Source: Acholeplasmataceae bacterium
GTDB taxonomy: Bacteria; Bacillota_I; Bacilli_A; Acholeplasmatales; Acholeplasmataceae
DNA length: 64,000 bases
Assembly (NCBI GenBank): GCA_963675245.1
Contig: OY775910.1
Span: 608,001 to 672,000, forward strand
Direction: 5' to 3'
A program made the position numbers and the translations under genes. Every line of letters begins with the position of its first letter. Positions within the stretch are counted from its first letter, which is position 1. The notes beneath the pieces are model-generated. The model made no database searches, was not told where the DNA came from, and worked only from the letters and a program-made list of their open reading frames with translations. This document shows positions 25,340 through 29,540 of the stretch, one piece after another.

Positions 25340-26974
25340 TTATTTTTGATAACTGCTCTTTAGTGGCACAGTTTCATTAAACACAAGACTACCTTGTGTT
25401 GTATCATCGTCAGTTGTGAAATATCCAATTCTCATAAACTGATATTTATCTTGAATCTTTGTGTCTTTTAATGCTGCTTCAACAAACCCATGTTTAATTT
25501 CTAAAGAATCTTCATTAAATCGATCCATTAATTCGCTTGATTCATCTTCTGATAACATTGGTTGATAAATATTAAATTGAGCTGGTACCCCTTGGGTAGC
25601 CTCTACGAAATGGATAGTCCCATTAGGTTTACGCGCATCAAAGCCTGATCCACTTCTTGTTTCTGGATCGTAGGTTGCTAACACTTCGATAATGTCACCA
25701 TCGCTGTTATACTTAACATCGACAGCTTTGATAAAATAAGCATAAAATAATCTTACTTCGCCACCTAAATAAAGTCTTTTGAACTTTTTGTTAGGTTTTT
25801 CTAATGCGAAATCATCTTTTTCAATGTAAATATGTTTTGAAAATGGTATATCTCTACTGCCAAATTCTGGATGTTCTTTGTGATACTCTTCATTGAAATA
25901 TTCAATTTTTCCATCAGGGTAATTTGTAATAGTGACCTTTAACGGATTAATCACGGCCATCACTCTGTTAGCTTTATCTGATAAATCGTTTCTAACAGCT
26001 GCTTCAAGCATATCTGCGCCAACTGTAGAATTTACTTTTGATAGTCCTGTGGATAAAATAAATGTTTTAATGGCATCAGGTGTGTAACCGCGACGACGCA
26101 TACCTGATAACGTAGGCATTCTTGGATCATCCCAACCTTTGACCTTCCCTTGTTCCACAAGAGCACGTAAAAATCTTTTTGATAAAACTGTATTTTCGAT
26201 ATTTAATCTGCCAAACTCGATTTGTCTTGGTTGAGCAGGCATATCTGTTTCTCTTACGAACCAATCGTAAAGTGGTCTATGATCTTCAAATTCAAGTGAA
26301 CATAATGAGTGTGTAATGTATTCAACTGCATCTTCTAATGGATGTGCAAAATCATACATTGGGTAAATTACCCACTTGTTACCAGTTCTGTGGTGCTCAG
26401 CATGTACAATACGATAAACAACAGGATCTCTCATGTTCATGTTGGGTGAAGCCATATCAATCTTGGCACGTAAAACACATTCACCTTCAGCAAATTCACC
26501 ATTTTTCATTTTGTCGAATAATGCTAAATTTTCTTCAATGGATGTATCACGATAAGGTGAGTTCTGTCCCGGTGTTGTTACATCACCACGCGTATTAGAT
26601 ATCAATTCTGCTGATTGGAAATCAACATATGCTAATCCTTTTTTGATTAAAATGATGGCACGCTCATACATTTCTGTGAAATAGTCAGAAGCGAAAAGAA
26701 TATGTTTAGGATCATAACCCAACCATCTAATGTCTCTTTCGATTGATTTGACATACACATCATCTTCTTTTTCTGGATTTGTGTCATCATATCTCAAATT
26801 TGTATATCCACCAAAGTATTTTGCTAGTTCAAAATTAGTCACAACAGCTCGTGCATGACCAATATGTAAGAACCCATTGGGTTCTGGTGGAAAACGTGTT
26901 ATGATTTTGTCGTGTTTTTTAGATTCAAGATCATTTTCAATGATTGTCTTGATGAAATTTGATTGATTTTCCAT
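25340..26974 (-). CDS. glnS: Glutamine--tRNA ligase
   Basis: TRFPPEPNGFLHIGH, HSLCSLEF, VLSKR, GWDDPRMPTLSG. Confidence 0.96.
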   Translation of the reverse strand: MENQSNFIKTIIENDLESKKHDKIITRFPPEPNGFLHIGHARAVVTNFELAKYFGGYTNLRYDDTNPEKEDDVYVKSIERDIRWLGYDPKHILFASDYFTEMYERAIILIKKGLAYVDFQSAELISNTRGDVTTPGQNSPYRDTSIEENLALFDKMKNGEFAEGECVLRAKIDMASPNMNMRDPVVYRIVHAEHHRTGNKWVIYPMYDFAHPLEDAVEYITHSLCSLEFEDHRPLYDWFVRETDMPAQPRQIEFGRLNIENTVLSKRFLRALVEQGKVKGWDDPRMPTLSGMRRRGYTPDAIKTFILSTGLSKVNSTVGADMLEAAVRNDLSDKANRVMAVINPLKVTITNYPDGKIEYFNEEYHKEHPEFGSRDIPFSKHIYIEKDDFALEKPNKKFKRLYLGGEVRLFYAYFIKAVDVKYNSDGDIIEVLATYDPETRSGSGFDARKPNGTIHFVEATQGVPAQFNIYQPMLSEDESSELMDRFNEDSLEIKHGFVEAALKDTKIQDKYQFMRIGYFTTDDDTTQGSLVFNETVPLKSSYQK

Positions 26975-26995
26975 AATAACATGTAAGATTTAAAG

Positions 26996-27190
26996 TGTAT
27001 TAAGTTAGTTACTTAAGTCTTTAAATCTTTACTCCTTTCGTTCTAATTTAATATACTAATAATGTACTGTGGATCTGTGTCATATTTTTATAACCTAGAC
27101 TATTTTGAGGTGACGCTTACCACGGTCTTTATTTTAATCAGCAATAGTTAGTTAGCGGAAGACGCTTTTTACATGATTATGAGATAAAGA
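26996..27190 (+). ncRNA. Putative IS110 bridge RNA (boundaries approximate)
   Basis: Two stem-closed loops (ACTGTGG/CCACGGT; TCTTTAT..TAATC/GATTA..ATAAAGA) containing matches to the target flank and both IS ends. Confidence 0.8.
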
Positions 27191-27239
27191 CGCTGCTGGA
27201 CTTACCACACGTACAAATTTAATTCTTGGAGGTGTACTT

Positions 27240-28400
27240 ATGATCTATATCGGCATCGATATTTCAAAGTACAAGCATGACTGTTTCATCGCCACCGAAA
27301 CAGTTAGCCATCAGTTCTCATTTGAGAACAGTCAGTCTGGGTTTAAAGAACTATTAGGATACTTTAACTCTTTAGTCAAGCAAGAAATGATAATAGGCTT
27401 AGAGGCCACAGGTCATTATGGAGAAAACCTTAAGTCATTTCTTATCCTCCATGGATATTCATTCATGGAGATTAATCCTTTTCTCGTGAAGAAGTTTGGA
27501 GAAGCCCATTCACTGAGAAAAACAAAGACGGATAAGAAAGATGCACAAATGATTTCAACTTATATGAGATCTGTAGACTACAAAGCCTATCATCATCAAT
27601 CTTATCATATAAGTGCTTTAAAATCACTGACCAGGTTACGTTTTAAACTCATCTCAATTCGGACGAAACACTACAATATGATGACCAAGGTCTTAGATGT
27701 CATCTTTCCTGAATTCAAACCTTTTATGCAAGAACAAGGCTATAGTGATACATCTTTATACATCTTGAAGCGCTTTTCATCACCGGATAAAATAGCAAGG
27801 ATGACTGATGACCACTTCGATAAGCTTCGTAAACGATCGATGGGTAAATTCAATTATCCGAAGTTTGTTAAACTGAAGGAACTCGCAAAATCAACCATTG
27901 GTGTGACACAAGATCATCAACTATTCAAACTTAAGACTTCAATTTCTTATGTTGAGAAACTCAATCAAGATATCGAAGAAACTGAGAAACAGATCACTTC
28001 TTTAATGCATCGATATCCAACTAAGATTCAAACCATTAAAGGTATCGGAATCATTTCAGCAGCTGTCATCGTTTCAGAATATGGTGATATTTCACTTTTC
28101 TCCAATCCCGCTGAAATGTTATCCTATGCAGGTCTGGATTCAACCATCAGACAGTCTGGCACCATGTCTTCAACAGGTAAACTGGTTAAACGTGGCAGCA
28201 AGTACCTAAGAGCAACACTCATCAATATCTCAATGATGGTTATGATCTATAACCCCGTCTTCTACGACTACTACACCAAGAAGAAACAAGAGGGTAAACA
28301 TCATCGTGTCGCACTGGTTCATCTTTCAAAAAAACTCATTAGAGTCATTCATCATCTCGAAACACATCAGGAAGATTTTGATTCCTCTAAACTACAATAA
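27240..28400 (+). CDS. IS110-family transposase (DEDD RuvC-like plus Transposase_20)
   Basis: YIGIDISK, LEATGHY, KTDKKDA, YAGL....RQSG, KRGSKYLR; SD GGAGGTG. Confidence 0.96.
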   Translation: MIYIGIDISKYKHDCFIATETVSHQFSFENSQSGFKELLGYFNSLVKQEMIIGLEATGHYGENLKSFLILHGYSFMEINPFLVKKFGEAHSLRKTKTDKKDAQMISTYMRSVDYKAYHHQSYHISALKSLTRLRFKLISIRTKHYNMMTKVLDVIFPEFKPFMQEQGYSDTSLYILKRFSSPDKIARMTDDHFDKLRKRSMGKFNYPKFVKLKELAKSTIGVTQDHQLFKLKTSISYVEKLNQDIEETEKQITSLMHRYPTKIQTIKGIGIISAAVIVSEYGDISLFSNPAEMLSYAGLDSTIRQSGTMSSTGKLVKRGSKYLRATLINISMMVMIYNPVFYDYYTKKKQEGKHHRVALVHLSKKLIRVIHHLETHQEDFDSSKLQ

Positions 28401-28539
28401 TTGATTCCTTAAACTGTGGCGGTTAAGTCATAAAATCATCCAGTTATATGGCTAACCTCTAAAAATTATGGCTATTGGAGGTTTTTACAGTTTATCTACT
28501 AAAAGTACTTGACTTTTAATAGTTAGTCACCTCAAAGTT

Positions 28540-28548
28540 ATTGTATCA
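28540..28548 (-). promoter_or_regulatory. Probable native glnS promoter (extended -10), now separated from the gene by the IS
   Basis: Minus-strand TGA-TACAAT just upstream of the displaced SD GAGGTG. Confidence 0.55.
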
Positions 28549-28604: not shown

Positions 28605-29540
28605 CTATTCTTCGTCGTTTATTTTAACATATTTTTTATTTTTAACAAACCGCTTTAGTGCAAAATCCACTGGATCAAGTCCCGTGTCTTTGACAATTCG
28701 TTCATAAAACATTTGTTTTTGTTCCGCCGTTCTATGCTCTAAATTCAGGATTGATTGAACTAAATGATGTTCAAATTGTTCTTGATCTCCTAAACGTTGA
28801 TGTGCTAATGCTTTGTAGTAGTGGAAATAGTCTAATAAGTAGTGCATATAATATGCTTCGCATTTTTCAATAGCGATGTTACACATTTCAACCACTTCTT
28901 CGTATTGCTCATTTCTTCCAAAGTTTTTAATCATCCAGAAATAAACGCGATATTCTGCAGTCACATTTCCACCCAAAGAGTGTCCCTTATCTCTCAAAAT
29001 ATCATACAATTTTTTTAGAATTGATTTCCTATCCTTATCGCTATATTCCATTAGAATTCCGAGCATGTATATTTCATCATCAGGGAAAGCTGATTTTTTC
29101 ATCACCCTTGGGTAATCAAGCATTTTATATATTTCGTTAATTAAATCTTCTTTTCTGATTCTTCCGGATTGTAAATCTAATATCAATTTAGAACTTCTAA
29201 ATAAATTCTCGTTAACTGTACTAATAAACACATGACTCTTCATCTTTTGATAATTTTCATACGCTTGAATGCCTTGATTAGAAGCAACCAAATTAAAAAA
29301 ACTTAAAGTGCTTTCGATTTCGTTAGCAAATTCATCGTCAAATTGATCAAGTAAACTAATAATCGAAATATTTAATTTTTCAGCAAATCTAGTAATTACT
29401 TCAAACGGGATTTCGCTTTCACCGCTACGATAGCGATAATATTGACGCTGTGATATAATACCGTCTAAGTAGTTCTCCTGGGAAATTTTTCGATCATATC
29501 TTAAATTTTCCATAAAATTTATTAATTTTAAGCTGTCCAT
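28605..29540 (-). CDS. Rgg/PlcR-like (RRNPP) HTH-TPR transcription regulator
   Basis: N-terminal XRE-type HTH (LRYDRKISQE...ISQRQYYRYRSGESEIP); C-terminal TPR-like helices (YEEVVEMCNIAIE...LLDYFHYYKALAHQRLGD); SD GAGGAG. Confidence 0.8.
   Translation of the reverse strand: MDSLKLINFMENLRYDRKISQENYLDGIISQRQYYRYRSGESEIPFEVITRFAEKLNISIISLLDQFDDEFANEIESTLSFFNLVASNQGIQAYENYQKMKSHVFISTVNENLFRSSKLILDLQSGRIRKEDLINEIYKMLDYPRVMKKSAFPDDEIYMLGILMEYSDKDRKSILKKLYDILRDKGHSLGGNVTAEYRVYFWMIKNFGRNEQYEEVVEMCNIAIEKCEAYYMHYLLDYFHYYKALAHQRLGDQEQFEHHLVQSILNLEHRTAEQKQMFYERIVKDTGLDPVDFALKRFVKNKKYVKINDEE

Follow-up and report, generated by a model that had tools for sequence, protein, structure and literature searches.

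An intact element of the IS110 group, inserted before glnS, very probably moves by bridge RNA-guided recombination, with the target-binding loop of its RNA aimed at the signal that starts translation of a host gene. The 1.63-Mb source genome carries four near-identical copies of this element (100% identity over 1546 shared bases plus the shared GT-CA), and all four lie between a Shine-Dalgarno (SD) sequence GAGGTG and the ATG of a gene, with the recombinase gene antisense to that gene. In each case the right junction is GAGGTG-AC and a CAT lies 5 nt from the left junction. The genes behind the four copies are glnS, a GDSL hydrolase gene, a 109-aa ORF and a gene for a pyridine-nucleotide disulfide oxidoreductase.

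By analogy with IS621, we propose that the element excises as a circle. Joining of its ends places TTGACT of the right end 17 nt from TAAGAT of the left end (13 nt, the core and 2 nt, a spacing kept in relatives), which would create a promoter that serves RNA and recombinase alike. With this RNA bound, a tetramer of the enzyme would then pair the donor junction with a target, the 5' side of the target loop, UGUCAUAUUUU-UA, resembling the left flank that bears the complement of the start codon. Strand exchange would occur at the CA core, between GAGG-TG and N5-ATG, and the AC that follows the right target guide would pair with the GT of the incoming donor end in a handshake. The expected outcome is a single orientation, with the recombinase gene antisense to the host gene, in which the right end keeps the host SD beside it and the ATG of the gene comes to lie 5 nt from the left end. 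The same logic appears to operate in a clade of relatives from Acholeplasmataceae-like and other low-G+C genomes, and the natural covariation of guides and flanks suggests that the system is programmable.

The element, its recombinase and its bridge RNA

The limits of the element are set by an empty site. In the nearest same-genus genome the glnS site reads GAGG-TG-TTATT-ATG on the gene strand, which is the exact pre-insertion sequence. Thus, the core is CA and not the TA that the first-pass annotation had proposed, and since the core is CA the element ends at 28527, so that GT 28526-27 is the element's own end rather than flank. From the four junctions alone both a TA and a GT core had been considered, and the empty site leaves CA. 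Comparison of the occupied with the empty site places the insertion at a 2-nt core common to donor and target, without a longer duplication. An intact SD-spacer-ATG precedes glnS in eight of nine other same-genus genomes. Terminal inverted repeats were not found when the ends TGTAAGAT... and ...AATAGTTAGT were compared by reading, and GatB was not found in the genome. In the contigs of the two sequencing runs that hold the stretch, the element is a repeat at ~3x flank depth, the flanks of the other copies are loose ends and no contig joins across the element. A search of sequencing runs brought up no RNA run of this organism, and the contigs of two metatranscriptome runs contain diverged relatives only (~90% identity or less) and are uninformative on transcription either way.

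The recombinase combines an N-terminal DEDD (RuvC-like) domain (PF01548, 4.9e-36, residues 4-157) with a C-terminal Tnp domain (PF02371, 4.7e-22, residues 262-345), and it scores 231 bits against the NCBIfam model NF033542, 'IS110 family RNA-guided transposase' (cut-off 140). It also matches the solved bridge recombinases of ISCro4 (7e-17) and IS621 (1.2e-15). Its RQSGT aligns with YESGS of ISCro4, and the serine of this motif is probably the nucleophile, by analogy with S241 of IS621 as given in the available text of the structural study (PMC11208158). Within the element there is no antisense ORF longer than 51 aa, the largest being an internal one of 51 aa, and none is hed-like.

The fold of the predicted bridge RNA, two stem-closed loops with an inner hairpin in the donor loop, had been described in the first-pass annotation and is borne out by covariation: across 15 relatives its helices comprise 33 pairs with 97.8% of cells paired, 4 of these pairs being changed on both sides, while slid controls gave 28-53% paired. 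A covariance model built from the same 15 relatives matches 96 of 100 loci of relatives (44-100% protein identity), just upstream of the recombinase gene. No curated Rfam family matches the predicted RNA; a single chance snoRNA match fell below threshold.

The donor-binding loop matches the ends of the element itself. On its 5' side, AATAGTTAGT is found at 27143-27152 and again at 28518-28527, two matches where 0.31 are expected and to which 5 of 100 shuffles attain. The annotation had read the shorter AATAGTTA (27143-27150) as the right end plus a TA core; the match holds, and indeed extends to these 10 nt, but the core does not. On the 3' side, TTACATG (27169-27175) corresponds, as its reverse complement, to the left end CATGTAA at 26980-26986, just as had been noted, although these 7 nt fall short of significance by themselves (two matches arise within the 4.5-kb locus in 45 of 200 shuffles). 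Among relatives the donor guide places the right end in 78 of 97 rows. In other groups the donor guides shift with the ends, as in TAGTTAGT, AGTAAGT, AGTTTAT and TAATAGTTTGT and in ACGTG/CACGT, ACAAG/CTTGT and CGAGG/CCTCG. Relatives likewise carry TTGAC[TA] at an equal distance from the core, with TATAAT or TATACT as the -10-like box in the more distant ones. The features of the locus are collected in the table.

Table. Features of the element and its glnS insertion site (positions in the window)
Feature	Positions	Strand	Basis or remark
glnS (glutaminyl-tRNA synthetase)	25340..26974	-	host gene, separated from its own SD by the element copy
Left target half TTCCATAATAA	26969..26979	+	at CAT 26972-26974 the minus strand carries the glnS start codon
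IS110-family insertion sequence	26980..28527	+	1548 bp including one CA core; limits set by empty site
Core dinucleotide CA, left copy	26980..26981	+	empty site CATAATAA-CA-CCTCA, nearest same-genus genome
TAAGAT, -10-like box of circle-junction promoter	26984..26989	+	predicted, read from sequence
Left-end hairpin (outer arms 26985-26995 / 27019-27029, inner 27000-05 / 27011-16)	26985..27029		per-sequence folds
AAAGGAG, putative SD-like motif (CTCCTTT on +)	27032..27038	-	glnS strand, directly before hairpin, faces glnS
Bridge RNA region (outer stem, target-binding loop, donor-binding loop)	27061..27217	+	covariance model R1
Left target guide TGTCATATTTT 27078-88, UA 27089-90 at core position	27078..27090	+	alignment of relatives; holds CAT
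Right target guide UUUGAGG 27104-10, core-binding UG 27111-12, handshake-position AC 27113-14	27104..27114	+	flank match, covariation
Left donor guide AATAGTTAGT, UA at core position	27143..27154	+	identical to right end 28518-28527
Right donor guide UUACA 27169-73, core-binding UG 27174-75, handshake-position AU 27176-77	27169..27177	+	left-end match
Recombinase gene, 386 aa, DEDD (RuvC-like) and Tnp domains	27240..28400	+	domain searches
TTGACT, -35-like box	28509..28514	+	predicted, read from sequence; complete promoter only in circular form
Core dinucleotide CA, right copy	28528..28529	+	four-copy junctions and empty site
Right target half CCTCAAAG	28530..28537	+	with core, complement of glnS Shine-Dalgarno GAGGTG

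The left end and translation of the host gene

Among the genes before which insertions lie are some of an essential type, namely glnS (in three genomes), gltX, trpS, era, ddl and gap. A pattern search of 60 unique left ends found 56 with a purine-rich SD-like motif on the host-gene strand, mostly GAAAGGAG, and in these 56 the order along that strand is SD-like motif, one stable hairpin, short tail, junction and host ATG. In the CC-core group, GAGG or AAGG arises anew 4-5 nt ahead of the ATG from the last bases of the element and the core. RNAalifold returned no consensus structure on a MAFFT alignment of the 60 left ends because the hairpin interiors are unalignable, and the hairpins were instead scored by per-sequence folds with shuffles.

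It is quite possible, and nearly as probable as its opposite, that the left-end CTCCTTT and the hairpin serve the element and not the host gene, whether as an anti-SD that masks the ribosome-binding site (RBS) of the recombinase or the SD-like guide, as a barrier to outside read-through or as a site that acts at the DNA level. Fold-back masking of transposase RBSs is common among insertion sequences, the hairpin has no strand asymmetry (36 versus 34 G-U pairs; folds more stable in 22 versus 35, p 0.16), and the ~12 nt that would stay unpaired between the motif and the host ATG are long for an SD. However, inspection by eye shows only 4 bp between the motif and the recombinase RBS GGAGGUG, and the motif reproduces the 5' portion of the extended SD rather than the complement of the recombinase RBS. 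Moreover, the -10 box of the proposed junction promoter lies partly within the outer hairpin arm, and an RNA made from this promoter would therefore lack the outer arm. Such a role for the element itself would also leave the translation of glnS unexplained.

Perhaps the elements instead bring a replacement SD that, together with the hairpin, keeps the host gene translated, a scenario that we regard as rather doubtful. Transcription from the host promoter would then cross the element on the strand opposite to the recombinase gene and would damp the recombinase, while the hairpin would bring the element-borne SD near the host ATG. A promoter scan of the left end found no consensus promoter facing glnS, with one weak minus-strand match at 27267-27240. 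If true, a portable SD with hairpin would explain the insertions before the essential-type genes named above. The universal start signal could then serve as a low-cost landing pad in any SD-using genome. If SD and hairpin do restore translation, the elements would be near-neutral passengers before essential genes. They would then also offer a natural design for adding DNA ahead of a gene that stays expressed. Translational coupling via an ATG at the element end was considered as well, and it is not general: in only two of the four own copies does the frame close with ATGA at the host start.

What the target-binding loop probably reads

The window, that is the whole 64-kb stretch of DNA that was analysed, contains two matches to TTTGAGGTGAC, one at 27104-27114 on the forward strand and the other, as the reverse complement, at 28526-28536, where 0.05 are expected and none of 100 shuffles reaches two. 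The first-pass annotation had found this complementarity, and these two matches are indeed the sole ones in the window. It had taken all 11 nt of the latter for the right target flank; the complementarity is real, but the first letters, GT 28526-27, belong to the element's own end. Within the guide, the AC at 27113-14 is complementary to these last two bases, and UUUGAGG-UG, on the 3' side of the target loop, is the complement of CA-CCTCAAA in the top strand of core and right flank and looks like an SD. The annotation had suggested from its SD-containing guide that this IS110 element may home to ribosome-binding sites, for which four of four copies now speak, and the homologs to which it pointed agree: where the guide differs, the flank carries the SD variant to match.

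This covariation was scored over 67 unique junctions with 30 guides, at 4.63 versus 2.73 matches of 6 between right target guide and flank (0 of 5000 permutations), and over close relatives at 5.00 versus 3.04 (n=18, six guides, 0 of 5000), the right end having been placed by the donor guide alone and the junctions of related genomes not being fully independent. Examples of such guide/flank pairs are GGGGTG/CACCCC, GGAGTTG/CAACTCC, GGAGATG/CATCTCC, GAAGGTG/CACCTTC, GGAGGC/GCCTCC and AGAAAGGC/GCCTTTCT. At least 5 nt of the extended SD are present within the right target guide in 64 of 80 unique guide sets. On the other side of the core, a CAT lies at a distance of 4-7 nt at 57 of 72 unique left junctions, as compared with 9.3% at random positions of the source genome, and in 54 of the 72 the junction CAT begins an ORF that either spans 60 codons or more or stays open up to the end of the locus. 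Ten of the 72 have no CAT within 2-9 nt of the core.

The left target guide had been sought at TTTTTATAA (27085-93), a candidate that extends into the core position and the distal hairpin arm and finds no support in the alignment of relatives, which places the guide at 27078-27088. This guide matches the four left flanks of its own copies at 6, 8, 7 and 8 of 11 positions, with mismatches beside the core. In two of these copies the left flank ends in GT, which could pair with the AC of the target loop; in IS621, according to the available text of PMC11208158, cognate pairing of the handshake type blocked strand exchange.

It is possible, if somewhat unlikely, that the RNA reads only the SD half of the site through the right guide and the core, the ATG and its 5-nt spacing reflecting the usual SD-ATG distance and the 5' side of the loop contributing little. 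The left guide match is weak, and so is its covariation among close relatives (5.82 versus 5.22 matches, reached by 223 of 5000 permutations); thus, the start codon beside the site may largely follow from the fact that an SD never lies far from one. The CAT-to-core distance is also variable, from 4 to 7, and 5 nt is the commonest GAGGTG-to-ATG spacing in the genome, with 37 sites as against 6, 13, 18 and 29 sites at 3, 4, 6 and 7 nt. However, CAT or UAU, the latter perhaps forming a U-G wobble to the ATG strand, stands at the aligned position of the left guide in 69 of 80 guide sets, while the neighbouring positions vary, and single cases match well (TTTCATcTAAT vs TTTCATtTAAT; ATCTATAATAC vs ACCCATAATAC). 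Across all 72 junctions the covariation of left guide and flank is modest (5.47 versus 4.49 of 11) and is reached by 0 of 5000 permutations, even without the CAT columns, and IS621 needs its own left guide, according to the available text of PMC11208160. It is highly improbable that the element has little sequence preference or follows a protein-read motif, with only insertions in SD-ATG spacers surviving selection and the guide-like matches as a by-product: the source genome offers four insertions only, the left guide match is weak and 33 GAGGTG-N5-ATG host sites are unoccupied, some of which match the guide better than the occupied ones, but in relatives RNA and flank vary in concert (0 of 5000 permutations), there is a single orientation with base-exact junctions at a 2-nt core, and insertion beside essential-type genes is no obvious selective optimum.

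With a target loop set on the start signal, as we favour, the guides of relatives drift among SD variants, with CA, CT or CC as their cores. The whole branch would thereby keep a programmable loop on the pair of SD and start codon, the short signal with the widest spread among bacterial genomes. The element provides a clear case from nature of the reading of a bridge RNA, in which the sequence allows all four guides, the core and the handshake positions to be assigned, with an empty site as a check. For annotation, an IS110 element directly before the ATG of a gene in low-G+C bacteria is best read as targeted.

Comparison with known systems

In phage T4 gene 38 a split ribosome-binding site is bridged by a hairpin. 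The order of SD-like motif, stable hairpin, short tail and start codon is alike in the left end of our element, whereas ~12 unpaired nt would remain in the element. For the recombinase, the ISCro4 transposase (PDB 9t56) is the best match among solved structures, judged by protein sequence alone; both domains align, as does the SG of Tnp.

The likeness to IS621 of Escherichia coli, so far as the available text of the two studies describes it (PMC11208160; PMC11208158), extends from the DEDD and Tnp recombinase to the position of the RNA upstream of the gene at the left end, and to two internal loops in each of which the 5' guide has the sense of the top strand, in our target loop probably so, and the 3' guide is complementary. 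It includes a core dinucleotide that takes part in each of the four pairings, a pair of handshake-position bases behind every 3' guide (PMC11208158) and a right-end -35 box, in our element a predicted one, that would need circularisation. In contrast, the core is CT in IS621 and CA here, the 5' guides of our element carry UA at the core position (a probable U-G wobble), and its right target guide is longer, with 7 nt plus core. The targets of the IS621 type are, in the same text, repeated intergenic sequences rather than the SD-ATG spacer of genes. Our element also has the extra left-end hairpin and SD-like motif, and a good sequence-search alignment of the two recombinases covers only ~150 N-terminal residues.

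In a literature search, no paper was found that joins IS900 to bridge RNA and none on an IS110 element with a Shine-Dalgarno target site, although tables of natural target motifs in PMC11208160 may contain such elements; the seekRNA paper mentions an RBS for a cargo gene only. The bridge-RNA mechanism as such is already known, and the choice of the RBS spacer as target is known from one mycobacterial relative, IS900. Its site was reportedly placed between RBS and start codon by Bull et al. in 2000. The insertion motif of this IS110-family element of Mycobacterium avium subsp. paratuberculosis is given as CATGNNNNNNTCTCCTT, or CATG-N6-TCTCCTT, in the available text of Conde et al., 2021 (PMC8141618). 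IS900 differs from our element in its host phylum and G+C, and in a long opposite-strand ORF, hed, that according to the same text borrows the host RBS and that our element lacks. By insertion geometry the two are alike, with a start-codon complement, a spacer of ~5-6 nt, an SD complement and equal orientation (PMC8141618), and CT-core relatives of our element have a nearly equal site, such as TTTCATGTTAT-CT-CCTTTAG. A target guide set on the start signal may thus account, at the level of RNA, for an insertion motif of IS900 that has long been known.

Element, ends and core

Judged by its sequence, the insertion sequence described here is a real and intact bridge-RNA element: each feature compared at sequence level, left-guide covariation aside, places it in the IS110 group, and by analogy its mechanism would be that of IS621. 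The recombinase scores 231 bits against the NCBIfam model 'IS110 family RNA-guided transposase' (cut-off 140) and, among solved bridge recombinases, matches ISCro4 (7e-17) and IS621 (1.2e-15). The genome, a single contig of 1,626,300 bp with 33.9% G+C, contains four copies that are near-identical over the DNA they share, the protein of the window copy differing by one residue from that of the other three. Position 27997 is C in the window copy and T in the collapsed repeat contigs of both runs that contain this stretch, which fits the one-residue difference. Relatives occur in Acholeplasmataceae and in other Mycoplasmatota or low-G+C lineages. At loci L034 and L006 of another genome (G008), an intact element is followed immediately, in the same orientation, by a second, degenerate recombinase gene (74% identity, six stop codons), which is a decayed tandem or truncated copy.

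Features of the element and its surroundings
Feature	Position	Strand	Description
Insertion sequence	26980-28527		1548 bp
Recombinase gene	27240-28400		386 aa; sole long ORF of the element; DEDD_Tnp_IS110 and Transposase_20 domains
Recombinase RBS	27229-27242		GAGGTG-TACTT-ATG
Target loop, 5' side	27078-90		UGUCAUAUUUU + UA
Target loop, 3' side	27104-14		UUUGAGG + UG + AC
Donor loop, 5' side	27143-54		AATAGTTAGT + UA; equals right end plus core, with U-G wobble
Donor loop, 3' side	27169-77		UUACA + UG + AU; complementary to core plus left end
SD-like motif of left end	27038 to 27032	host-gene strand	AAAGGAG
SD-like motif plus hairpin	26985-27038	host-gene strand
Putative circle-junction promoter	28509-14 and 26984-89		TTGACT, 17 nt across the joined ends, TAAGAT (TATAAT in relatives)
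Extended -10-like box	28540-28548	minus	TGATACAAT
Terminator-like hairpin	28606-28585		follows the 311-aa ORF
Neighbouring ORF	28605-29540	minus	311 aa, without Pfam family

The right junction is the same in all four copies, ...AATAGTTAGT-CA-CCTC, and the left junctions read CAT-N5, then CATGTAAG; taken alone, these junctions are compatible with several cores. At glnS (92.5% identical), the nearest genome of the same genus lacks the element, and its gene strand, ...ACAATAACTGTGAGGTGTTATTATGGAAAATC, is collinear with both window flanks. This makes CCATAATAA-CA-CCTCA the target and CA, rather than the TA proposed in the first-pass annotation, the core; the element extends from 26980 to 28527, with the second CA at 28528-29. 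That annotation had also matched an 11-mer of the non-coding left end to the right target flank; the match holds (two occurrences in 64 kb, 0.05 expected), but the GT with which the supposed flank begins belongs to the end of the element itself. The 8-mer that it matched to the right end can be extended to a 10-mer, while its 7-mer match to the left end is present but not significant on its own.

Guides and target sites

In 15 relatives with proteins 63-100% identical, the 157 nt preceding the recombinase gene were aligned, and the alignment predicts an RNA with an outer stem, a closing stem for the first loop, a long closing stem for the second and a small hairpin within each loop. Pairing is kept in 97.8% of cells, with two-sided changes at four pairs, and falls to 28-53% when the partners are slid as a control. 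Of 100 loci, with protein identities as low as 44%, 96 match a covariance model of this RNA over its full length immediately 5' of the recombinase gene; no corresponding family was found in Rfam. Guides were assigned by the rules of IS621, according to which (PMC11208160, PMC11208158) 5' guides are in top-strand sense, 3' guides are complementary to the top strand, the core is read in four pairings and two handshake bases follow each 3' guide. The register is supported by the layout common to both loops: guide, UA, inner hairpin, 7 nt, UG, 2 nt. The terminal AC on the 3' side of the target loop is the complement of the element's final GT, as predicted for the incoming donor strand by the handshake model. 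The left target guide, for which 27085-27093 had been the candidate, is moved to 27078-90.

Comparison across relatives argues that the right side of the site is chosen by the RNA. Right ends were placed with nothing but the donor guide and the conserved TTGAC[TA] box, successfully in 78 of 97 rows. Over the resulting 67 unique right junctions, with 30 guides among them, agreement at the six positions beyond the core was 4.63 for cognate and 2.73 for non-cognate pairs (0/5000 permutations). Close relatives alone (18 junctions) gave 5.00 versus 3.04 (0/5000), and an earlier guide-informed analysis had the same outcome. Guide/flank pairs include GGGGTG/CACCCC, GGAGTTG/CAACTCC, GGAGATG/CATCTCC, GGAAGTG/CACTTCC, GAAGGTG/CACCTTC, AAAGGAG-AC/GT-CTCCTTT, TAGGAGGC/GCCTCCTA and TAGAAAGGC/GCCTTTCTA. 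Every guide variant among these examples is an SD variant, at least 5 nt are common to guide and extended SD in 64 of 80 unique guide sets, and the 16S genes of the genome have the usual anti-SD at their 3' end. The handshake bases vary along with the right end (TC with GA, AU with AT). With the right guide varying with its flank, the main proposal of the first-pass annotation, a bridge-RNA IS110 element homing to ribosome-binding sites, is upheld.

For the left side, the evidence that the RNA chooses the site is weaker. Of 72 unique left junctions, 57 have a CAT at a distance of 4-7 nt ahead of the core (9.3% at random positions), and in 54 of the 72 this CAT begins an ORF that either has 60 codons or more or runs off the end of the locus. 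The aligned place in the guide is CAT (30) or UAU (39) in 69 of 80 guide sets, the UAU being read as wobble-pairing to the ATG strand. Guide-flank agreement is 5.47 versus 4.49 of 11 across the 72 junctions (0/5000 permutations), 5.82 versus 5.22 for close relatives only (223/5000), and 6-8 of 11 positions for the flanks of the four own copies. The start codon is thus probably read by the RNA. Part of its presence at junctions could nevertheless stem from the SD alone, a rival reading held to be less likely.

A relative about 90% identical, on a contig of a compost metatranscriptome run (aligned to 26980-28428), carries 27106 T>G and 27107 G>T in its right target guide; the left flank terminates in ...TTCATAATATT, and here too CAT is 6 nt from the core.

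The four own insertions are upstream of glnS, a GDSL hydrolase, a 109-aa ORF without family and a 456-aa disulfide oxidoreductase, with the recombinase gene antisense to the host gene in each. Of the 37 GAGGTG-N5-ATG sites that the genome still contains, four are copies of the element's own recombinase RBS and 33 are unoccupied host sites. The recombinase RBS fits the target consensus as well as occupied host sites do. In principle, copies could insert into one another's recombinase RBS; no nested copies were seen in the genome. In a second species of the genus (L039, G009), a diverged relative occupies the same glnS SD-ATG spacer (flank ...TTACATG-ATACT-ATG); the contig ends within the bridge RNA, after its first 44 positions, and the left guide agrees with the flank at 8 of 11. 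A third insertion in a glnS SD-ATG spacer, again of a diverged relative, is found in another genus (L021, G030), and insertion at the glnS start site seems to be recurrent. Genes starting at relatives' junctions (47 ORFs scanned) include gltX, trpS, era, ddl, gap, uppP, signal peptidase I and whiA.

Possible translation of host genes cut off from their SD

The insertion puts 1.5 kb between the SD and the ATG of glnS. GatB (PF02934) was not found in this 99.96%-complete genome by a search that was positive in 12 of 14 control genomes, and glnS is present in one copy; therefore glnS should be essential. Gln-tRNA is probably made by way of GlnRS alone, despite the displaced SD. Since essential-type genes are hit, their expression must survive insertion.

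About 10 nt separate the extended -10-like box from the displaced glnS SD downstream of it; in relatives, the corresponding position is occupied by TATAAT. Transcription from the host promoter probably enters the element directly, in antisense to the recombinase gene. The terminator-like hairpin is located just upstream of the glnS promoter region.

On the host-gene strand, the left end follows a common plan: a purine-rich SD-like motif (mostly GAAAGGAG), one hairpin, a few bases, the junction and the ATG. A pattern search of 60 unique left ends detected the motif in 56, and in all 56 folds the stretch from motif to terminus closes into a single hairpin that begins 0-4 nt past the motif and stops 2-10 nt short of the terminus (median z-score -3.7; below -2 in 53 of 56). 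Since stem sequences vary between groups, it is structure rather than sequence that is conserved. In the CC-core group, the element's last bases and the core re-form GAGG or AAGG ahead of the ATG. Perhaps motif and hairpin serve as a portable ribosome-binding site for the host gene. We regard this as doubtful: about 12 unpaired nucleotides would be left between motif and ATG, and the hairpin is without strand bias. Read on the other strand, the motif could instead be an anti-SD or a read-through barrier serving the element itself. However, the -10 box of the putative circle-junction promoter shares positions with the outer hairpin arm, so that RNA from this promoter would lack the arm, which favors the host-strand reading.

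Comparison with known systems

Bull et al., in 2000, reportedly placed the IS900 site between RBS and start codon. RBS spacers are a target class already known from IS900. The IS900 insertion site, given as CATG-N6-TCTCCTT (PMC8141618), has the geometry of the element's sites. IS900 differs in having a hed ORF, whose counterpart is absent from the window element. In the literature searched, no paper was found that ties bridge RNA guides to IS900 or to SD targeting. The problem raised by the element is how essential host genes stay translated, and a portable RBS would be a testable answer.
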